DNA of 63,453 nucleotides, the filler included, from Rozella allomycis CSF55 (taxonomy: Eukaryota), in the NCBI GenBank assembly GCA_000442015.1. It is 13 parts of 13 records of this genome, joined end to end, with 100 filler letters (N's around TTAATTAATTAA, not from the genome) between each part and the next. Parts side by side here need not be neighbours in the genome. Positions count along the whole stretch, not along the records: positions 12,482 to 18,437 come from KE560590.1; 12 more parts are not named here. The stretch is one strand, 5' to 3'. The notes beneath the pieces were generated by a model. That model made no database searches, was not told where the DNA came from, and saw only the letters and a program-made list of their open reading frames with translations. Of the stretch, positions 2,001-50,000 are shown piece by piece; position 1 is the first letter of the stretch; each line of letters begins with the position of its first letter. A program made the position numbers and the translations under genes.

Positions 2001-2100
2001 NNNNNNNNNNNNNNNNNNNNNNNNNNNNNNNNNNNNNNNNNNNNTTAATTAATTAANNNNNNNNNNNNNNNNNNNNNNNNNNNNNNNNNNNNNNNNNNNN
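2001..2100. other. Artificial scaffold spacer (first of 12)
   Basis: 44 N + TTAATTAATTAA + 44 N; also at 7158, 8756, 10168, 12382, 18438, 21109, 42187, 43363, 44757, 46861, 60290. Confidence 0.98.
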
Positions 2101-5100
2101 GGCCTTTGCACCAACAGCCCTGGGCCAAGGACAGAATGAAGCGATTTCACGAAAGGATGGAGACCTTTCAACAAGCAAGATGCCGTACTTGTCACGAAAT
2201 GTGGCCTACCCCTGCAGTAGTCCCAGACAACATGGCCGAATATGTCTGTCACAGATGCAAGAAGGATCCGATGAAATTCAGCCTTGAAAACGACATGCTT
2301 CCTAATCCTTCCGCCATTCCGTTGCGAATAAGAAAAATGCTGAAGAACTTGACACCAGTCGAAGAGATGCTGATTAGCCCAGTCCTTCCTATCATGGCTG
2401 TCTACAAGCTGCCTGGCGGACAATCCGTGAGCCGTGGATTCACAGCTAATTTCCGTCAAGATGTGAACGACCTCTGCAAACAACTTCCACGTCTACCGAC
2501 TTGTCTGCCCGTTCTGATTGGGCGTCGCCGTGGGCAACAGAATACATTGCGCGAATGCAAAGTCCGACGAGCCAGGTATGAGATGAATGACATCAATGAC
2601 AGAGTCCTGGCCGTTTTGGAGTTTCTTTGTGAATATCATCCACTCGTCCTTGCTCTCGGGATAGCCATCGAGCACGCAAATCTGTCGCAATTGCCAAAAG
2701 ACAATGTTCTAGACCTAGCTGCTTTAGAAGGCACCGAGGAAGAGATGGAGCAGCTGGATGACATTGCGCGACAAGATTTGGGACCAGAAATGGCTGACCG
2801 AATTCCATGAAGACGCCATGGCTTCTCTGTGCTTCCCCAAGCTCTTTCCCCTCGGAATGGCTGACCCTACACAGCACGCGCGTTTGCAGAAAGTGACAGA
2901 GAGCCAAGGATTTGACCAATTGCTGAGATACGCGGAAGACGATCCCGACAATCCTGACGCCATGTACTACCCGTTCGCCGAGCACTCCCGATTCATGTTT
3001 TGCGCAAATGACAGAGTTCGACGTCATCGCATTCTGTCGCAAAGCAAAATCTTTTTGAAGCAAAATCAGAATGAGGCGAACATGACAGTCGCGGACTTGA
3101 AGAATCTGCTTGGCAGCAATCAGGCATCCGAGTTGATGGATGCGAATGTCGGCATACTCAGCCAATATCACAGGATCTCAGTCATTTAGGTACCATCGGC
3201 GCGTTGAGTTGGAACACATTTTTCTGGAAAAGGTAATCGAGCAATATGCAACGACAGGAACTGTGTTCTGGACTGCTAGCTATTCAGATAATCACCAGAA
3301 TCATTGCCATCGCCTCATGCCTCTTGCAGCGAACACGGCATCTGAACGGTATCGAAATTGCCTGCGCAACCCCCACCTGGTTGACTGGTTTTTTGAAATA
3401 CGTTCGACGGAGTTCCTCAAAGCTCTCTTTGACGATGTTCTGAACGCAGAGTAGACTTGGTTTAGATACGAGTGGCAATCGAGGACTAGCATTCACGCGC
3501 ATGGAACCACAAAGTTCAAGAATGATCCCGGCTTGTGCGAACTGACCACAAAGGCATACGTCGGTCGCTTGATGGAAACTCGTAAGCCAATAACCCCAAC
3601 GCAGTTATCGATCCTACGCAACAAGAGGTGATCGACGCGGGTAAAAATTCATCGAACATTGTCCTGAAGTACGCGCAATGGCTTTTGACCGCCTCAAATC
3701 CCAGAGTAAATCGTGACGAGCACCCTGGTGGAGTACCAGATCCACACCCTTGCTCAAAACGGATTCTGGATATCATTGACGATGCCGCTGCAATGGCACG
3801 GGACTACGAAGAGCTCTGTAACTGTTGTCAAAGACATGTGTGTAGACCCGGAGGCTACTGCAAAAGGAAAAAAGCCCGCGTGAATGGCAAACCGAGTCGA
3901 TTCGACTATCACATGGATCTCTCCGATAAAGCGGAACTTGTCTTCATTGAAACCGACAAGTCTGTTCGGGCAGAGATACGCCTACCGCGTAACGATGAGA
4001 CTTTTAACATCCACAATCGCTTGCAACACCACCATTGGCGTGCGAATGTGGATATGCAAATCATTCTTGACAAACATGCAGCCATACGATACATGGTAAA
4101 GTATGCCAGCAAGGGCGAAAAGGAAAGCGGTCAACTCCAAGACGTGTACAACACTGTGAAAAGAAATGCTAAAGAAGACGATTCGATTCGGCGCACGGGA
4201 AGATGCGCTCACTGATGATAAAGTCTCTGGGCAACCGCGACATTGGAAAAGGAGAAACGTCGCGTCTCCTAATGGGAGGCAGCCACTACAAGTCGCCTTT
4301 CAAATTTACAAAGGTTAACCTGGATCTGGACAGCCGTCGTGTCAACTTGGAAGATGCCGACCCGAATGCCCAAGCCCTCTGCCCGTCAGTACTACAGATG
4401 TTGCCAAATGGAAAACGTTTCTTCTTCAAGCGGCACCTGATGTGCAGCGATACGCAGACTTCTCATTTAACTTGAACCAGCAGCTGGCGCTGGCGAGACA
4501 GGAAGGACAAGATGATGATCCAGCCGAGGCTGAGAACCTTTTGCTTAGAGACGATTGGATGAACTTGGCCGACATGCGTCCCGAGGTACATTTTCAAAAA
4601 TCACGTTCATCTAGATTGAACATGTTGAGATGAACGCACCTGCTGTTAATAATGACCATGACTGGCAAGCATCGCGACAAACCTATTCAGCTCGTGAACT
4701 AGCCGACATGCAAGGATGGCTCGAGAAACATAAACGAACGTCACCGGATGTAGATCGTCCTTTACCTCCAGTCAATAGGGAACACTTGAATGATGGCCAG
4801 CGTCGTGTCTACGATTTGTTGCAAGGTCACTTGTAAGGGAACAAGCAGCTGTTGATGATTGTCAATGGCATAGCGGGCACAGGAAAGTCACACACCGTCT
4901 ACGCCCTCTCCAATCTATTGGCTGACAGGGTCAAACGCTGTGCCTTTACTGCCAAGGCTGCTTACTTGATACATGGCTCCACCCTACACTCTACATTCAA
5001 GCTGCGACCCAACAAGCCTTTCACCAAGCTGAAAGATAATGCGCTTAAACAGCTTAAAGAGACTTTCAAGTATGTCACTACGATTATAATCGATGAGTAC

Positions 5101-6290
5101 TCCATGCGGTCGCAGGAACTCATCGGCTGCATCGACGCGAGATTGCGTCAAGCGAAGAATGCGCAAGATGTCCTGTTCGGTGAAGTGTCTATTCTCTTAG
5201 TCGGCGATCCAGCTCAACTTCTTCCTGTCGGCGGATCTCCTCTCTACTCGGACAATCCCAAGAAGCCCATTTCTACGGCTGGTCGCGACGCTTACGTTGC
5301 ATTCAAGAATGTTGTCAAGCTAGATCAAGTCATGCGACAGCAAAATTGGACGGCGACGCGCTGCAGCAGAAATACATTGTAAGCAGAAACAATAGACATG
5401 TTATTTAGGAACTTCTTTCACGTTTGGCCAATGGTGAGTCGACCGCTGAAGATTGGCGCGTGCTCTTGCCGTTGTCCTTCTGCTCTAAGTCAAGAAGAGC
5501 ACAACACTTTTCAAGACGCCATACGGCTGTTTAGCACGAATGAGAAAGTAGACGAGCACAATCAGCACCAGTTGAATGCGCTTGGCATGCCTATTATCAG
5601 GCTCACGGCGACAAACTCCAATTCTTCTGCCAGGAACTTAAGCTCGAGTAAGTTCAGAGGACTCGAGAATCATCTGTATCTGTGTAAGAATGCTGAAGTC
5701 GTGCTCACGACAAACCTGTGGATCCGAACAGGTTTGGTAAATGGTGCAAAGGGAATCATCAAGGACATCATCTATGCTCCAGGCGATGGTATGGATAAGC
5801 TTCCCAACACATTGCTTGTGCACTTCCCTGACTACGCAGGGTCGCGGTTCTTTCCAGACGAGGCGCGAAGAAACTGGATCCCGATGTCTGTATTATCGGC
5901 GGCTTGTGACTACGGTAGCAACATGAAGAGAATTCAGTACCCATTTCGCCTGGCATATACAATGACGATCCCCAAGGCTCAGGGCCAGACTCTCAAGAAG
6001 GTTGTCGTCGATCGCGGTGACAAGGAAATGTCACTCGGTCTCTCTTTCGTGGCTATATCACGTGCGAAACGCTTGAAGGATATGATTATCATGCCCATGT
6101 CCTTTGACCGTTTAACAAAAATCAAGAACTCCACGTCCATGGGCCCTCGACTTAAAGAGCAAAAGAGGCTTGATGAACTAGTCGCTTCTACACAGCTTCA
6201 GTTTCAAATGCAATAGTTTAAATACACTCGACAGCGTGTCACAACAACTTTAAAATTTATGATTCAGCTTGCTGAATTACTTTTATCTAA
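2101..6290 (+). mobile_element. Helitron, degenerate RepHel (HUH Rep + PIF1 helicase), 5' end lost in gap
   Basis: VEEMLISP motif; WFRYEWQSRTSIHAHG (HUH); YMVKYASK (Y2); GIAGTGKS, IIIDEYSM, GDPAQLLPV, AQGQTL, VAISR helicase motifs; many frameshifts/stops; visibly more GC-rich than host genes. Confidence 0.92.
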
Positions 6291-12834: not shown

Positions 12835-15800
12835 TTAATGTCTGAATTTTCTGACATGAGCAATAAAACTTTCGTCTGGGCCACGTCTTTGGTATTCTGA
12901 ATCAGCTACATTAAAGTAAGAACCTAGCATGAAAGCGGCAGATCTAAGTTTAGTCCAATTTTGTCCAGAAGCTAGGCTAGCATTTGAAATAATAGATGGT
13001 TCATCATCTTTGGGATGTAAAATTTCCAGGGCTTCCTTTTGTTCAAATGGTTTGGTAAAAGTGACCATTGTTAATCCACGGGTTACATCACGTGTTACGT
13101 AGAGATTATTTTGTTTTACAATATCATCTAAAACTTTGGTTTGTTCATCCAACAATTGCTCTTCTGGAATAGTTTGCATTTGCTTCACAAGCATTTGATC
13201 TTTTTTACTAAAGTATCGTTTTAAAAAGAAATTAGAAATACTGACCAAACCCATGACAATGCATCCAGGTATCATACAAAGAAGCCATTCCTGCCACGCA
13301 GTCAATGGGAGTGTGCTAGCTACTTGGCCTCCAAACATTACAAAGAGAACTTGAACTATTGAAATAATTATAATGACCACAATAAATATTTTGTTTTTGA
13401 AGAAACCTCTAAGACTGTTTACACGGAAGTCCAAAAATCTTCCAGTGAGAAAATTAGCTAATTGTAGGCAAATAAAGGTAGTAAACACCAAAGTAAATAT
13501 TTTCTTGTTATTAGCAACTGCGGGAATGGATATATCGTTTAAATTTATGACACTATAATCTAATGAAGGAATGCCAAGTATTGAAGGACCAGCAAACAAA
13601 ACAATAACGAGACTTGTAACTTGAAGTATGACCTGTATGATGATATACGAAAACATATCGCGTGAGATAAGAGCACCTGATCGCTTATGCGGCGGATGTA
13701 GAAGAATGTCCTCATCTGGTTCATCTGAAGCCAGGGCTAAAGCGCCAAGACTATCCATGATAAGATTTACCCACAAAAGTTGCACTGAAGTAAAAATAGA
13801 GTTTTCAACACCGATAGAGCCGATTATAACGATTGTAATTGCAACGATATTGACTGCCAGTTGAAATTGTAAAAATTTTCTCACACAATCCATGATATTT
13901 CTACCCCAAGCAATAGATCTAACGAAAGAAGCAAAGTTATCATCCAGAAGAATAATGTCAGAAGCATTTCTAGCAATTTGAGTTCCAGCTTGACCCATAG
14001 CGAAACCAACGTCAGCTTCTTTGAGAGCAGGTGCATCATTAGTGCCATCGCCAGTTACACCCACAACATTCCCCATCTTTTTAAGTAATCTAACTAATTC
14101 AAATTTATCTGTTGGAGAAGATCTGGCAACAACTTGAACTCTGGGCAAGATGGTCAATTTGTCTTCCTCACTTAAAGCTCTAAATGCAGGCCCTTTAAAC
14201 TATAACTAGAATGTGTTACCTTCAATGGCTATTCCATTTCCATATAAAATACCGCATTCTCTGGCGATATACGACGCTGTTAAAACGTTGTCTCCAGTTA
14301 CCATTCTAACAAACAAACCCGCAGTAAGACATTCTTTAACAGCTTTTGGGACTTCTTTTCTTAATGGATCTTTAATGCCAAATATTCCTACGAATGTTAA
14401 ATCATATTCAGGTGTTCCAGATTCTTCATTGTTAATGTTTTCTTTTCAATTAAAAATATTCTTTTACCAACTTCTTTTGGAATATCTTTAAAATCTTTAA
14501 ACGCAAGGGCTAAAGTTCTTAATCCCTGGCCAGCCCATTGATTTATAGTTGTTTTTAAAATCTCAATTTCTTTTTTTGTGATTTTTCTTTCAATCAACGC
14601 ATCATTCTCACAGGTTAATATTTTATCACAAAGATCAACAATGATTTCAGAAGCACCTTTAGTCAACAATCTATATTTCTTATTTTCTGAATCTATGTAT
14701 TTTATTTTAGATGGGGTTTCAATTTCAATCAATGTGCTCATTCGCTTTCTTGCAGAGTTAAATGCAAATTCTCCTCCAGGAACTTTCTTGCATAATTTTC
14801 TCATCGCTTCATAATCAACACCGAATTTTTGACTAAAGACTAACAAGGCTCCTTCTGTTGCAGATCCAACAAACTTTGGTAATTTCTCGCCTTCTGTTGA
14901 CTTTACAAAGCATGTGCTATTCAAACAGATCCCTTCCATCAAAACACGATACATTGATTCATTCAATTGTGTTTTATTTTGATACTCTGGAGCATTCGGA
15001 TTATTCATAGTGACCTTACGATCGTTAAGATTTCCGCCCACTGGCTCATCTTTTTCATTTATCGAAATAAAATGCGATTCATCACGGGGTTGCCATTCTT
15101 CAGAGACACTTGTGGCAAGGTATGCCTTGACGACTGTCATGCGATTCTCTGTTAACGTCCCTTTGATTTTCCTATACAAGTGTTACCTTTTTGCATACAT
15201 AGAAACAAATATATTTACCTGTTTTATCTGTGCATATACACGTAGCTTCACCCATTGTTTCGGAAGCACTCAGGTGCCTTACAAAGCAATTATCTTTAAT
15301 CATTTTAAAGACTGAAAAGGCAAGTGAAATAGTAACAGCTAATGGAAGCCCTTCAGGAACAGCAACAACTTGAATTCAACATACAAAAAATATATACCAA
15401 CAATTGTTACAGCTGTCACAAAGAAATGTAACAAATCTTGAAGCCTTTTCACTTCAAAGTTGTTGACATTAACTATCAACCACCTAATTACAAGTCCAAC
15501 AAATGATACTATCGCAGCAGCCATTCCTATATACCCTATTTGAACAGCTAAAACTTTAAGCTTTCTTTGTAGAGTTGTTTCTGACTTTTGTAGTTCATTT
15601 AAAATTGCTTGTATTCTCCCTGCTGACGACGAAGCACCAACTCCAGTAACAACCATCAAGCCAGTCCCTTCAGATACTTGGCAACCAGAGAACATAAATG
15701 GTTTATTGATATTCTTCTTGCATAGTATAGTCTCCCCAGTCAATGGACTTTCATCAACCGCAACATCTCTTTGTTCCTCGACTTTGTCTGTGAATTCTCC

Positions 15801-16547
15801 ATATCTAATAAACAATCCATCAGCCGGTATTTCATCCCCAGGATTAACTTGAATTATATCTCCAACAACAATATCCCAAGTTGAAATTTGATCAATCATT
15901 CCATCACGAACAACCATTGCCTTTTTATCAGAAGACAACAACAAGATTTTTTGGAATTTCTTTTCTTTAGAATAATCATTCCCACTAGTTACAAATAGCA
16001 CAATGAAAATTGCAATGGTAATGGCTGTTCCTTCATACCAACCTTAATAATGATTTCAATCCAATTGATACCTTTTTCAATATCAGTAGAAATACCCACA
16101 GCCAATGTCACAATGGCTCCGACAATAAGAATTTGAATGATTCTGTCCTCTTTCACAGTCTCCCAAACTAAGCCAAGGAGGGATGTTTGAGGAGGAGGAG
16201 GTACCACTGAATTGATTTACATGAAATAAATATACCATTGCTTCCAAAAGCCTTTCTTCTTTGTGCTATCGATCGTGGATCATCATCCGTCATGGTACTA
16301 TTCAAACCGAAATTGGGTTTCACATTAAGTAACTCACAAACGCCTATTGATCCGCCATACTTTGATTGAAAGTTATCAACGTGCTCCTTTGAATCCCGCA
16401 AGTCAAAATTGACCGCCTCTATCAACCTTTTAATGATTTTACCTCGGCCAATTGTTCTTTGCTAACTCGAATGAAATCTTTGGTATCAATTGAAATTTCG
16501 ACTTGTGCTATTTTGGATTCTAAAATTGGCTGCGAGTCTTTCAGCAT
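12835..16547 (-). CDS. PMC1: P2B-type (PMCA/Pmc1) calcium-transporting ATPase, multi-exon
   Basis: [29 protein letters not shown] (split by intron), [38 protein letters not shown]. Confidence 0.95.
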
Positions 16548-16875
16548 TGTATATTGAAATTTTCCACGTTGACTACCAATTTGGAAAATCACAATTACAG
16601 TAAACTGCATTAAAAATGGGAAGAAAAATAATATTTAATAAAAAAAACATAAAAGTTACAAAATAGAATTGTATTCATAAAATAGAAACTAAATGAGAAG
16701 GAGTCGACAGCGACAGTTGTTTTTAACAGGAAAAATATTGGCGCTTTTCATAAAAATTTCCTCGGCAATGTAAACTCTAATTCTTATTCCTCTCGTATTT
16801 CAATTGTTTATTACAACCCTGGCAATCCAGTCGTTATCGTAAATCGTTTTTGTTACTTAAAAAGGCTTGAAATAC

Positions 16876-17975
<1,100 letters not shown>

Positions 17976-18661
17976 ATTCTCTTACCTTCCTTAATCACAA
18001 ATCGATATCCCAATTTTACTTTCCTGTATGGAATTACTTTCACTATTCAAAATTAAATTTACCTGTCGTACCATTCTCATCCCCACCCGTTTCCCGTAAA
18101 AATCCTGGTAATTTTTTCCGGTAATTTCCAAAACGTTTTACCGTAGAATTCTCCAGAGAATCATAAAACCCTATTATCCCGAGAATTCCCAAATACAAAA
18201 ATGAAATACCTGAGAGGTGGATTTAATATCAGCGGGATAAAGCGTGGATTGAGAATCATTAGAGTTAAAGAAAATGATGCACTGAGGCACTCCAAGAANA
18301 ATCATTAGAGTTAAAGAAAATGATGCACTGAGGCACTCCAAGAAACAAAAGAACGAAAGATGACAGACCGGATGACAGACAAAAATTCAGAAAACCTTAC
18401 AGAAGCTCAGAACGCGGTTGAGTTGAGACATGAACACNNNNNNNNNNNNNNNNNNNNNNNNNNNNNNNNNNNNNNNNNNNNTTAATTAATTAANNNNNNN
18501 NNNNNNNNNNNNNNNNNNNNNNNNNNNNNNNNNNNNNAAGTCGTCATACACCAAGACATTCATTGAAAGATAATGAAATTTCAAAATTAAATGTACAATT
18601 CTATTGTGTCATTTAGCTACTTTGTATCAAAAGGCTAAATTTTCTGAAAAATACATTTGAA

Positions 18662-27963: not shown

Positions 27964-30900
27964 TTATGTTAACTTGAGGGTAACTAGTAATTTCTTATTC
28001 TTGTTACTAATTTGGGTTGTAGATTTTCTCTTTTTCTGTTTCTTTGTAAATTTATCAAATGGATTGTCATTGACTTTACCTTTCCCTTTGTCAGTACTTT
28101 CACCTTTACTTTTCCCTTTATCAGTACTTTCACCTTTAGTCTTCCCCTTTTCTGCTCCCTTCTCAACTCCCTTTCCCTTCTCTACTCCCTTGCTATCTTT
28201 GAGTTTATCATTGTCATCATTTCTTCTTCTCTCTTCCATTTTCTGTAACAGTTGCAATTCCAATTCTTCATCATCTAATAAAAGCGACATTATTTCTTTT
28301 TTAGATTCTTGTTTGAATTCACCGCCAGCAATGACCACTTTTTGAATTTGATCTTTTTGGTTTGCTCTTTGCAGGATTCTCTCTTCGATTGTATTCTTGC
28401 AGATTAAACGGTAGACGGTGACTTGCTTTGTTTGACCTAGACGATGTGCTCTGTCCATTGCCTGTTAGTGAGAATAAATTGGATTACTTGTTGATCAACA
28501 GTTGGATTCCAATCTGAATCAAAAAAGATGACAGTGTCTGCAGCAGTTAAATTGATGCCAAGACCACCAGCTCTAGTTGACAAGAGAAAGATGAAAATGT
28601 CAGGGTTTGATTGCCAATCATTTACTAGATCTCTTCTGTCGGATATTTTAGTTGAGCCATCTAATCTAAGATATTTGAATCTTCTAAAGTTCAAGTAGTC
28701 TTCCAAGAGATCAATCATTCTCGTCATTTGATTGTAGATTAAAACTCTGTGGTTGTTTGATTTTAATTCAAATAAAAGTTTATCCAAGTATGATAATTTT
28801 CCAGAATCATTTATGAATTTTAAAAAGTTTGGAGAATTTATTGGATTAATTTGTTTACAATCAAAATCTAAAAGTTTAGAATAAAATATTTCATTGAAAT
28901 TAAATGAATTCAACAAACTTTGATTATTAATAAAATTCATACTAGAACAAGTTAATGTTATTGGAGGGGCTAAACATTTTGGCACCAATGGATTCAATCT
29001 TTTCAAAGCAGTCTCAACTGTATAAGATGTGATATCTAAGTTAGAGAGAGTAGTGAGACTATTAGAGAGACTAGTTGAAGTAGTGGTGTAATTGATAACA
29101 CTTAAACTACTATCACTGTTACTATTACTATAACTCTCATCACTACTACCTTCAATGTGTTGTTCATGTCTGAGATGTTTAATTATATCAATTGGCTCCT
29201 TTGTTATTAATAAATTCTTATCACTAGAATTCATTTCAACACAATTATATAAAAGCTTTGGAAGATGAAATTGAATTGGATTTTCATTTTGAAATAAACA
29301 ATTTGATTCAATTGGAACATTTCTACTAAAGATGAATGGAGAAACAATATTAGATTTTTCAAATAGATCTGGATGATTACATACCTTTCTAAATTGCATT
29401 ACCAGATTCATCAAATAAGAATCATCATTTGATTTATTAATTAGATCCTTTAATGACATTTTATTCTTCAATGATTGATACATTTTCTTTTGCTTTAAAC
29501 TAGAATTCACTTTAACTTCAATTTCAATCTTTTCACCCAACTCATGCTCAACATCCTTCTTCACTCGTCTCAACATGAATGGCTTCAATATCATATGAAG
29601 TCTATTCAACTGATTATCATCCAAAGAACTATTATTCTCTGCATGCGACTCAATGTCCTTGGAAAACCATTCACTAAACTCATCATGCGAATCAAACAAC
29701 GTTGGCATAATAAAATGAAGCAACGCCCACAACTCTTGCATCGAATTCTGTATTGGCGTTCCTGTAATCAATAATCTATTCCTACAGTTAAAATTCAACA
29801 ATGTCTTCCATCTAACACTACTGCTACTCTTAATCGCATGCGCTTCATCCAACACCATACACTGCCACTTCAATCTATTAAAATACTTTTCATCTTGAAC
29901 AACTATTTGATAGCTAGTTATCAACACATGAAACGATGATTCTTTTTGATACAAATTCTTCAAATTCCAAAACTTTCTCAATGTTTTTCTATCACTAATA
30001 GTCCCCCAATATGGCAACGTCTATATCAATCTCTACAATATTCTTACTTTGAATTCTGGCGTAAATTTAGTAAATTCTTGTTGCCAATTATGAAGCGTTG
30101 ATGCTGGCGCTACAATCAAAAATGGTCCCCATATATTATGCTTCTCTGCTAAATGAGCCAGAAATGATATTGATTGAACTGTCTTTCCTAATCCCATATC
30201 ATCTGACAACACTCCATTAATCCCCTGCTCATACAAATTAACAAGCCAATTCAATCCCTTTCTCTGATATGGCTTCAATTCACACTGTAACATTCTTGGC
30301 TGTTCCACTTGCAAACTTATCTCTTCTACTCTATTGCCTCTCTCTTCATCAAACGCTCTTGTTTTCATTTGTTGCTTTTCTATTGCCATCTGTGCTTGTT
30401 CCTTTGCCTTTTCTTTCAACTGTTCATCACTCAACTCGTCAAAATTTATAACTTTTAAATCACTTGAAGCCACGGTATGATTATTTAAACCCTTTGTATC
30501 ACTACTTGAACCCTTTGCGTCACTGCTACTAGCTCCCTTCTCTTCTCCTACAACTCGCTTGCCTATGAAATGCGAATACAACTCTGTCTGCGTAATCAGA
30601 AAATTCAACTTTTTAGCTTGTCTTTTGGCTTCCCTTATCTCTTCCTCCTTTTTCCTCCTCTCAATCGCATCCTTGGCACTCTTCTTTCTCAATTCCTTTT
30701 CCTCCTTTTCATTTCTTCTCCAAAAAGACAACATCTGATCATTCCCCTAAATTCATCTTACATCTCTACTAGCCTTCTTGGCCCTCAAATTAGGATCTCT
30801 ATTCACCCAAATAAACCTCTGGAAATTTCTCTTCACTTCCTTTTCACACAACGTTGAAACCCTTTTATTAGTCAACGTCTTTGTATTCGTAAACTGACTC

Positions 30901-31696
30901 ATAGCCTTGGATGCCTACTCTCATCAATCTCTTCTATTTACCCTCGGGATTATCCTTCTCGTTATATTCTGCCAAACCCTCTTCTGTCGAGTCTCCACAT
31001 CCATCACCTCATTCTCCTCCTCATTCATCTCTTCCTCTTCAACATCCTTCATATGGTCAATCGGAACTTCTTCTGGAGGTATCACCAACTCAACAACAAC
31101 ATTCTTTTTCTTTTCAACCCTACGGTCCACAATCTTCTCAACCTCCACAACTTTATCCCGCGCTCCAATCTCAGACCTCCTCAATGCCCTCCTACTACTC
31201 CTCACAGGTGTCTTCCCACCAACACTCTCTCCCTCATTTAACACTCCAGCAACCGCCTCCACAACAGCCGCACTCTTAACAACACTCTCCCTCCTCATCT
31301 CATCCTCACTCCCAACATCGCCCTCATAAAACCCCAACTCTCCCAGCCTCTCAATACTCTTCTTCAGCCGCTCCTTGGATTCCTACCCAATCACACTCAA
31401 CTCCTTACCTCAAACCACACACTCTCCTCCTCCACCAGCTTCGCCGCCCTGCTCTCCCGTCGCGATATATACCGCGCAAGCAAATCCATCTGCAACTCAT
31501 CCTCCGCTACACTCATCCCTACACTCTTGTCCCCTTCATGCCATTCAGCTAAATACGTCCAATCCCCGTGCAAGTTCTCATACGGGATACACGTATGCGC
31601 ATACTTTGTCGTAAACGGGATTTTATACTGCAATGTTAAACTCAACTGCTGCTCTAGTGACTCCAACTGCGCAATCGTTGCCTTGGCCTTTTTCAT
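27964..31696 (-). CDS. INO80: INO80 chromatin-remodelling ATPase, multi-exon
   Basis: [66 protein letters not shown]; 5' exon structure approximate. Confidence 0.95.
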
Positions 31697-31819
31697 GTAA
31701 CAAGGGTCATCGTTCTGGTCAAAGTAATGACAATAACAGTGCAGAATATTGATGAGATATTTGTAAGATAATTAGAGATTTTAATCGCTTTATTTAATAT
31801 TAAATAAACTGATAGTGCT

Positions 31820-32989
<1,170 letters not shown>

Positions 32990-47030: not shown

Positions 47031-50000
47031 TTAATTCAAAGATCTTTTGGGATCGTTCATTCGAATAATTCTGACATTTTTAGACTGAGGAATAGTGCTA
47101 ATTGAGATTGAGAGAGTGAATTACCTAAAGTCTTGAGGGGAGATGAGAACGTATTGAACTTTGTGGAGGGAGCAGTAATCAATTAGAAAAGAGATGCTCT
47201 GTCTTCTGTTTACAGCGTCCTATCAGTGTGAATTTAAAGTATTACCATGAAGACGTCGAATTCGTCTAAACATCTGAGAGGCGATGACATTGTTCCCCAT
47301 AGAGAGAGTAAGAGACAAACTGTTGAGAATGATTTTTCGCCGCCTGAAAGAGATCGAACACCTAAATGAAAAAGAATGTTTAAAGAATACCTAAATGAAA
47401 AAGAATGTTTAAATGGTACCTATATTAACAAATATACTCTAAAGATACCTATATTAACAAAACTTCTAAAGAATACCTATATTAACAAAACCAATAAAGA
47501 TTACCTTTTCGTTTGTTCCCAGATTGATTATTCTTTTCTTGTTCACTAACATAAACTTGAATCTGCATTTTGCCAACCTTGTCATCAATAGGATGAACAA
47601 ACTTAATATTTCCTTTAAAAGAATACTAGTTAAACATTACCATAATAGCCTCTTTCAGCCATGTGTTGATGAAAGCTTTGCCTAGCCATTAAAGCCATTG
47701 AAGTTCTCATCTTGTGCCATTTAGAGTCTCTTTCTTTAATACTTTTATCTAGATAGTTGATTTTGTTTATTGTTGAATCTAAAACTTTAACAGCATCAGA
47801 ATATTTGGATTGAAGATTTCTTAATTTTTCTGTGATTTCTTCAATTGAAATTTTGTGTTCTTTTTGTAATTGATGAACCCTTGCTTCTAATCTAACAATT
47901 TCATCTTCAATTGCATTTGATGGTTTTCCAACAAATCTCTCTTCACAAACAGACAATGCTTTTTCTTTCATGTCTGCAGATTCTAATTTTAATTCTTTTA
48001 ATTGATTTTTGATTGATTCATTTAAAGTTTTATTTTTTAGAAATTGAAGATTGAAATTTTCTTTTTCTCTTTGAAATTTAGTAATTTTCTCAATTAAGAT
48101 TTGTCTCTTTTCTAGAATTGATTTTCTGTTTAATTCTTTCAATTTAATTTCCTTTTCAATGTTTTTTAATTCTAAATTTATTTCATTGTAATCTTTTTTC
48201 TTTTCTCCAATTTCTAACATTGTTGCTCTTCGTTGTTGTTCCATCAACTTTAATGATTCATTCAAGTTCTAATAGATAAAATATAATTAATCTACTTGCA
48301 AATTTTCTTTCATTGATAATAATTTAGAATTATCTTCAACAGAATTCAAAATATTTTCAATTTTTTCTAAAAATCTATTTCTGAAATTTCATAAATTACC
48401 TAGATTATTTTCAAGTTTATTTAATTCATCTTGCAAAGATTTTACATTTGATTTTAATTGATTTTTATTATTTCTTAAATTTTCTAAATCTTTTTTAATT
48501 GAAAATAAATCTCTTGAACAAACTTTTTCTTTTTCTATTTCAGAGTTCAACTTTTGTTTCTTTTGATTTAAAATTGAATCAAAATTTTTAGTGATTGGAA
48601 TAATTCTATTTGGTTTCAACAATGGAACTGTTAAATCAGCTTCAATTCTCAATAAATTATCTTTGGAAACTGAAAAATCAATAAATTTAATCCCTTGTCT
48701 CATCAACGTTGCTGCTTCTTTTCTTGTTTGGAACATTCCAATTCTTTCTATTTTACTATTCAACTTTAACGCCGATTCTACAATCTCATTCGTTATTTTC
48801 AAATTTCTTTTTATTGTTTTAACTTGTGATGATGGTTCATATCTACTTGTATCCAACAAATCATTAAATTTCATAACAATCACACTCGCTTGATAATTAC
48901 ATCTCTCAAATATCTTCATCAATTCCATCTTATCATAATGATTATCAACTGCAAAATTTCTCATCTCTCTTCCAATCACACACTGGATCACATCATTCCA
49001 CTCTTCATCTATAATCTCAACAAACGCTCCAAACGGTCCAACTGGCTTCTTATTAAACTTTCTTCCTTCTATCATACTCAACACCTGCTGACATTCCCTT
49101 CCAAACCTAGCCATTCTATTTTTAGAACTCTCACTCAAATCTTCAACATCTCTCTTCAATGCACTAATCTGATCTCTAATTTCCCTCGTCATTCTCTCTG
49201 CATTCCTCTCTTCTCTCTCCTTTTCTTCCACTCTCGTTTCAACCTCAAACAACTCTTGCTTCTTACTCGCAATCTCCTTCTTCACCATCTCTATCCTCTC
49301 ACTAACCATCTTCTTTTCTTCATTCGCCTTGTTCTTCACACTCAAATTGTTTTTAGATTCCTCTGCTGCAATTGATTGCTCAATATTCTCAACTCTCTCT
49401 TTATAATCTTTAATCTTCATATCACACTCCTTTACATTCTCAATCATCCCCTTGATTTCAATTCCAATCTCTCGCTTTCTACCCTCCACTTGGCTCTTCT
49501 TCTCCTGCATCGGCTCAATAACCCCAACACTCTCTTCATTCTCTTCTTCTATCCCCTTCATCTCCTCCTCAATCTCTTTAATTCTCTCTTCACACTTATC
49601 CACCCTGCTTCTACTCAAAATCATCTCCTCCTCCTGCTTAATCATCTCAGCCTCCAGTCTCTCCATCTCCTTCACCTTCTCTTCATACATCGCCCATATC
49701 AAATCATCCTTCTTCCTCTCCAACTGCTCATTAAAATCATAAATCTCCTGCATCTGCTCATACTGCCGCTTCGTACTCTCATACTCTTTCTTCAACGCCT
49801 CAAAATTCTTCTCCTTCAACTTTATCTGTCCCTGCATCTGTGCCATCTTGCCCTTTAGAAAATCTATCCCCTCCTTCCACGTCTGCAGATTAGACGCCTT
49901 TAGAAAAAACTTTCATCCATTACATTCCCTCTTACCTCGTACTTTTTTTCTTCAGATGAATCCTGCAAAAACTGTTTCGCCGTTTCCTGGTTCAACACCA

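Follow-up and report, generated by a model that had tools for sequence, protein, structure and literature searches.

Two abutting minimal introns in a Rozella allomycis calcium-pump gene and a genome-wide class of intron chains probably removed unit by unit

The 58-nt intron that interrupts the DKTG motif of a PMCA-type Ca2+ ATPase gene in Rozella allomycis consists of two introns of normal size that abut at an internal AG/GT (here and below, a slash marks a splice junction), and chains of such abutting introns, of up to 12 units, recur across the genome. The single pump case only modestly exceeds chance, whereas the genome-wide class far exceeds it. From the sequences described below we consider it probable that introns in this organism duplicate whole at AG/G sites and that a spliceosome with a limit on intron length takes them out one unit at a time.

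The 58-nt intron of the pump gene

The window (the whole stretch of DNA analysed, 63,453 nt with filler) holds on its minus strand a pump gene whose intron positions are given in Table 1 with the other features discussed. Its Pfam matches are E1-E2_ATPase, Cation_ATPase and Cation_ATPase_C, and its best database match is the identical R. allomycis protein P0001, followed by PMCA-type pumps. The annotation of P0001 already has DKTGTLT across the site of the 58-nt intron; our gene model gives a protein of 1184 residues compared with 1162 in the database, the mismatch being distant from the DKTG junction. The locus is single-copy. About 20 alternative letters in the gene (window 12970-16037), none inside the 58-nt intron, come from DNA runs X2 and X3, and the strain is therefore heterozygous. 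The contig end at window 18084-18437 is a high-copy repeat, with depth up to ~100x that of the pump gene, and a GC-rich stretch at window 2049-6216 (plus strand) with DUF6570 and PIF1 helicase frames interrupted by stops presumably resembles a Helitron-type element.

Table 1. Positions of the pump gene, the parts of its 58-nt intron and other intron chains (window positions unless a locus is named).
Feature	Position	Strand	Remarks	Basis
PMCA-type Ca2+ ATPase gene	12835..16610	-	7 intron positions	gene model
Pump introns 1-4	16442-16417, 16235-16207, 16071-16043, 15397-15369	-		gene model
Pump introns 5-7	15218-15161, 14467-14442, 14219-14193	-	intron 5 is the 58-nt stack	gene model
Upstream exon end	15219..15228	-	GAT AAA ACA G (D-K-T and first base of Gly), ends AG	sequence, translation
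Unit 1	15187..15218	-	32 nt, GTAA..AAG; long for the genome, 5th percentile of intron scores	
Internal AG/GTA junction	15184..15188	-	candidate zero-nucleotide exon, between 15187 and 15186	
Unit 2	15161..15186	-	26 nt, GTAA..AAG; 87th percentile of intron scores	
Alternative nested inner intron	15172..15198	-	27 nt, GTAT..TAG, straddles the AG/GT junction	GT..AG enumeration and scoring; inferred
Downstream exon start	15149..15160	-	GG ACG TTA ACA G; first base G, hence site AG/G	sequence, translation
SMC6 intron	47362..47504	-	five abutting units, 28+28+29+29+29 = 143 nt, phase-1 Gly	
Twelve-unit chain, CFAP43-like gene	L123 (G000:C719, ~35.2-35.5 kb)	+	340 nt	
PRP8, several chains	L121 (G000:C706:15000-20500)	-	three N-free chains	ungapped in most homologs

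Exactly this 58-nt intron was called by a gene model blind to internal structure. It lies in the Gly codon of DKTG, as the initial annotation had claimed without giving the strand, and its division at AG/GTA into GT..AG units of 32 and 26 nt is likewise seen in the sequence; the upstream codons had been misread as GCA GAT and are in fact ACA GAT AAA ACA G (T-D-K-T-G). The frame is restored only with all 58 nt out, since removing one unit or none shifts it, and either order of unit removal yields an identical mRNA. With GT..AG ends around a zero-nucleotide AG/GT, the intron has the anatomy of zero-nucleotide-exon splicing. All 116 homologs spanning the DKTG junction align ungapped, with a mean identity of 94% over 12 residues. 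The intron is crossed without gaps by contigs from the DNA runs X2, X3 and X1, the last a possible source; the letters in which they differ all lie outside it, and no N is near, which bears out the earlier view that the stack is not an assembly duplication. The two units had also been called dissimilar, and they do indeed resemble each other no more than random intron pairs do, 81% of such pairs scoring as high globally and 22% locally.

When the interior of the intron was shuffled (n = 200,000), a split into two parts of 26-32 nt arose at AGGT in 2.3% and at AGGTA in 0.9% of the shuffles. The stack had been proposed to support stepwise splicing independently; with the split found in ~1-2% of shuffles and a nested route competing with it (see below), it carries little weight in that respect.

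Short introns and intron chains of the genome

Our gene model, the one blind to internal structure, was trained on 400 kb of unselected DNA and the window, with introns of up to 400 nt allowed on a flat basis, and placed 637 of 671 introns at 26-32 nt and only 7 below 26 nt. Donors were GTA in 96% and acceptors TAG, AAG or CAG; a branch consensus was absent from these modelled introns (CT[AG]A 54 compared to 77.8 in shuffles, CTAAC 5 compared to 6.3), and a weak excess of TAA was seen 6-9 nt from the 3' end. The introns are of U2 type, judged by their GT..AG ends and by U1 and U2 RNAs with pairing motifs that we take to be the canonical sequences; U2 scored above its cut-off and U1, at 69 bits, just below 69.5. 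Both SF1 and Slu7 are present in the genome, which rules out the loss of either as the cause of the proposed intron length limit.

Some apparent long introns re-parse as introns of 26-29 nt with a non-AG end, often TTG (L021:1167-1228, L119:4821-4858, L141:2647-2696, L073:2232-2289, L081:502-548 and L082:5674-5724), and Pfam coordinates require the shorter intron at the first two of these. TG acceptors account for 11 of 39 non-AG calls against a background of 15%, a suggestive difference only, and such ends could be sequence errors. A count of AGGT in introns of 50-65 nt, proposed earlier as a check, gave little: one of six structure-blind calls in unselected DNA splits at AG/GT, and the count as posed is weak because most such calls are mis-modelled. 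The remaining five are doubtful as long introns: an N lies within one, another omits 12 Pfam positions, a third comes after the end of a domain, and the other two can be parsed anew as short introns ending in TG.

The class became apparent from pattern counts across the genome, where triple AG/GTA at 25-37-nt spacing occurs 228 times compared to 3 off-period (38-50 nt), and the paired pattern 64 times compared to 8. Off-period controls were used instead of a reversed-pattern control, whose count of 74 matches is raised by a coding word that is common. Sequence surrounding most of the listed pattern matches was modelled again with abutting introns permitted, which gave 128 chains at 640 intron positions in this targeted DNA and 7 at 628 in unselected DNA, two of the 7 being doubtful by eye. 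Altogether, 135 non-duplicate chains of 2-12 units were modelled; setting aside 11 with N leaves 124 N-free chains, and setting aside a further 5 with an irregular unit leaves 119 chains with 371 units. These clean chains are 52-340 nt long, and internal junctions across chains are AG/GTA in 272 of 275 cases. Extrapolation gives ~150-220 chains among ~19,000 intron positions (95% range 50-445). In the 400 kb of unselected DNA and the window, the spacing of AGGTA pairs has a faint peak only, and hence chains are rare outside certain genes.

Chain hosts include several dynein heavy chains, PRP8, Brr2, an RNA polymerase large subunit, topoisomerase II, SMC1, SMC6, family B DNA polymerase, clathrin, ubiquitin E1, Hsp90 and other P-type pumps, host names beyond the Pfam labels being our interpretation. 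Of 33 N-free chains open to a homology test, 26 have junctions at which most homologs align without a gap, compared to 67 of 85 single introns. The gene models, made in this analysis, over-call some units, and one failure in this test reflects an over-called last unit; a dynein 'unit' is exon as judged by homology. Chains occupy the same positions within genes as single introns (p 0.61), and units of 3n length have in-frame stops at an equal rate (92/106 compared to 257/302 in single introns). Non-terminal units are longer than single introns (29.0 versus 27.8 nt), and 5 of 252 are 26 nt. The phase-1 Gly position that the initial annotation had pointed out as common to the pump and SMC6 stacks is confirmed, and recurs in 67 of 80 phase-1 stacks; the exon downstream of the SMC6 intron matches solved SMC6 chains.

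One N-containing region of PRP8 looks assembly-duplicated. A chain of 28-nt units at L038 (G000:C138:3937-4025, plus strand) lies near the start of a short gene, where the model did not assign it to a coding region, and may be in the 5' UTR. A metagenome pattern scan returned at least 121 matching stretches, and among the 80 screened, 3 were non-repetitive and none resembled a Rozella chain.

Origin of the chains and of the pump pair

In longer chains, adjacent units are often diverged duplicates. Among 252 neighbour pairs, 41% are more alike than the 95th percentile for unrelated units, and the mean similarity of units drops with distance, from 4.6 for adjacent units to 2.0, -0.4 and -1.3 at distances of two, three and four units (null -2.0). 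In the SMC6 chain, units 1-3 are alike and units 4-5 are alike, with the start of unit 5 resembling unit 2, a pattern that suggests unequal exchange. Only 9 of 57 two-unit stacks show similarity between their units, and duplication is therefore unproven for pairs.

The flanks of the chains are distinctive. AG/G flanks occur at 89 of 119 chains; among single introns they occur at 55 of 364 that share a gene with a chain and at 38 of 601 in other places. The chain counts are inflated inasmuch as most chains were found via AG/GTA patterns; chains matching neither search pattern have upstream AG in 14 of 18 cases and downstream G in 11 of 18. Where the next exon starts with G, it starts with GT in 33 of 57 cases at chains and in 51 of 174 at single introns (p 0.0002). 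Microhomology between flank and last unit at position -3 is not enriched (39/104, with 40.9 expected). AG/G offers microhomology for in-register duplication and also the same splice context at each intermediate, so that mutation and selection are indistinguishable here. We envisage that a chain would start when a single intron at an AG/G site is duplicated head to tail and would grow by further slippage or unequal exchange, after which interiors would drift with junctions and unit length retained.

In a paralogous pump this DKTG codon position holds a single intron of 27 nt; at three other paralogous loci it is free of introns. The simplest reading of this distribution is that the pump pair is a doubled ancestral intron: the single intron in the DKTG Gly codon would have become two, long enough ago to erase their similarity. 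The stack had earlier been called old, which fits its dissimilar units, but an unrelated intron inserted at an AG/GT boundary would look identical. Such an origin, in which the AG/GT boundary of an existing intron took up another, unrelated intron or a mobile one and splicing proceeds in the same way, is one we regard as unlikely. Its appeal lies in the unrelatedness of the pump units, and of the units in most two-unit stacks, and in the fact that the AG/GT exon-intron boundary equals the proto-splice consensus. It is weakened by the clear local duplication in longer chains and by the failure to find dispersed intron families, 1,462 units and introns (~6% of the genome) including no near-identical cross-gene pair. 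The best matches of the two pump units score 10 and 8, and a whole-genome search with the locus returns one match, so that the near-identical dispersed copies characteristic of introner-like elements were not seen.

Removal of the units and relation to known systems

To return to the reading of duplicated introns that leave one by one, the main indirect argument for unit-by-unit removal is that junctions are intact where interiors diverge and that long unsplit introns find no Pfam support. When only the outer junctions were fixed, at a distance of two periods, the search gave 72 spans, which form ~44 clusters on 28 contigs; every one of the 72 has a mid-way AG/GT (71 AG/GTA and 1 AG/GTG, judged by eye). 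Neighbouring units have a median identity of 69%, compared to 59% for unrelated introns after alignment, and only 1 of 252 pairs is identical; for the 86 clearly homologous neighbour pairs ~24 broken junctions would be expected if neutral, and an over-long unit was found in only 2 of the 124 N-free chains. None of 24 N-free long unsplit intron calls is supported by Pfam continuity, which could be judged for about half of them: 3 would fuse unlike protein families, 2 leave out 12 and 4 profile positions, ~6 fall where a domain ends or a gene begins, and the others lack a usable match. As a class, the internal AG/GT junctions thus appear constrained within the R. allomycis genome.

The best reading of the 58-nt intron is likewise that it is likely removed stepwise via its AG/GT. 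Rozella introns carry almost no information (GTA..WAG, with no branch consensus) and seemingly are defined mostly by length, so that the spliceosome would take out a chain one unit at a time. Each AG/GT would serve first as acceptor and next as donor, and any order of removal would lead to the same mRNA. Matches of RNA run X9 to the window are short, diverged pieces away from the 58-nt intron and weigh on neither side.

At the pump locus the two steps might instead be nested, a possibility overlooked in the initial annotation. On enumerating all GT..AG pairs of 22-36 nt, we found that, once the inner 27 nt (15198-15172) are out, a GT..AG intron of 31 nt would remain, with the mRNA unchanged; both predicted introns have normal ends and lengths, each length being more usual than 32 nt, and the summed site-and-length score is 11.7 for the nested route (5.9 for 27 nt and 5.8 for 31 nt) versus 11.0 for the abutting one. 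A cryptic 29-nt intron extending 12 nt into the exon is also possible at this locus. Were the inner intron removed first, the AG/GT would be incidental here or a minor route. The nested option is present in 4 of 57 two-unit stacks, compared to 1.5% of random intron pairs, but the other 53 are without it, in the long intron calls we noticed no N-free intron of double length with a nested route only, and the AG/GT junction of the pump matches the genome-wide class, on which grounds we hold nested removal to be distinctly unlikely.

Removal of the 58 nt in one step, with the internal AG/GT skipped as a left-over of duplication or a product of chance, is in our judgement very unlikely. The final mRNA would be identical, and mature mRNA, as described in the available text of PMC4712674, cannot separate one-step from stepwise removal, whereas lariats can. 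Such a route could in long chains be helped by pairing of G-rich 5' units with C-rich 3' units, which would bring the chain ends together. In chains of at least four units the 5' end is indeed the G-richer in 34 of 38 and the 3' units are C-rich; along five-unit chains, 5' to 3', G content drops from 0.21 to 0.03 and C content increases from 0.05 to 0.21, and in the twelve-unit chain the first units are strongly G-rich and the last C-rich, with folding slightly better than in shuffles (z -2.1). First and last units show a slight pairing excess (p 0.03 in four-unit chains, and 0.11 and 0.08 in those of the other sizes). Yet sequence-specific hairpins in the chains are unsupported (folding z -0.6 to +0.4, chimeric halves pairing about equally well), the pump pair is without polarity, and junctions are intact, with diverging interiors, even where the search did not demand them. 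Four-fold sites along long genes, as well as single introns, show the same G-to-C shift, which is strongest in chain-bearing genes: in genes over 3 kb, four-fold-site G goes from 0.39 to 0.10, 5' to 3', in 16 chain-bearing genes, and from 0.16 to 0.08 in 6 unselected ones. Strong skews were also observed in the window profile at 30001-32000 and 48001-50000.

An assembly artefact, a tiny exon or intronised coding sequence within the 58 nt is extremely improbable: N-joined duplications do occur inside 11 of the 135 chains elsewhere in the assembly, but the idea is refuted here by spanning contigs that run through the intron unchanged and by ungapped homologs that leave no space for extra residues.

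As far as DNA sequence alone can tell, the Rozella stack resembles the zero-nucleotide-exon recursive splicing of Drosophila and vertebrates, in which an acceptor AG is directly followed by a donor GT and stepwise removal would give the same mRNA. The animal introns are described as typically over 10 kb with rare relay points (PMC13149111, as far as available), unlike the Rozella pieces, which are all minimal introns of 26-32 nt that tile the whole intron; at 58 nt the pump intron is far from a long host intron. Two abutting introns have also been reported in fungi, in the 336-nt recursive intron of S. pombe SPNCRNA.445 (bioRxiv 10.1101/226894), in C. neoformans BOT1 (210+165 nt = 375 nt; bioRxiv 10.1101/224170) and in snoRNA clusters of Candida and Debaryomyces, where one Candida locus uses nested and recursive routes to one product (PMC5033589). 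In the portions of these reports available to us, the yeast cases are RNA-shown, number 1-2 loci per genome, and have pieces of ordinary length that often bear snoRNAs, unlike Rozella, with its at least 124 N-free chains in protein-coding genes and signs of whole-unit duplication. Stwintrons of Ascomycota are likewise short complex introns, two U2 introns removed consecutively, in which the inner intron splits the outer intron's donor, branch or acceptor and so fixes the order (PMC6616335, PMC7138796, both in part), and abutting introns are treated as a separate type (PMC6616335). The pump intron does not appear to be a stwintron: its units abut, and the nested candidate, separated from the donor by 20 nt and from the acceptor by 11 nt, interrupts neither, nor, in a genome with no branch consensus detected, any other recognised element. 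Putative introns of ~30 nt have been noted in the R. allomycis S23 gene (PMC6349667), and the available text of that report mentions no stacked units; the extended branch points it describes for long microsporidian introns are absent from the Rozella introns modelled here. In the literature searched, mostly non-subscription and exclusive of the original genome paper and of supplements, we found no description of Rozella stacked introns or of chains made only of minimal introns.

We would join these elements in a wider reading, whose truth as a whole we rate as evenly balanced: the Rozella spliceosome would remove only ~26-32 nt at once, so that introns grow in whole units and must leave unit by unit; duplication at AG/G would have built chains of up to 12 units in PRP8, Brr2, an RNA polymerase large subunit, Top2, SMC1/6 and dyneins; and the G-to-C shift along chains, as along long genes, may pace the polymerase for timely clearance of the units.

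The significance is carried by the class of chains more than by the pump locus, which is useful in that abutting and nested routes would lead to one mRNA within a catalytic motif that tolerates no error. Recursive splicing has been presented as an uncommon way of dealing with very long introns, and here the opposite limit, ~32 nt, would force it. A single organism offers tests of whether a length-defined spliceosome can skip an internal AG/GT, of the order in which abutting introns exit and of whole-intron duplication as a source of introns, and its chains of differing age, with units from identical to unrecognisable, form a natural time series. If the proposed reading is true, recursive splicing in R. 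allomycis would be obligatory and genome-wide at the smallest scale, and the birth of introns by intron duplication would be visible in its genes.
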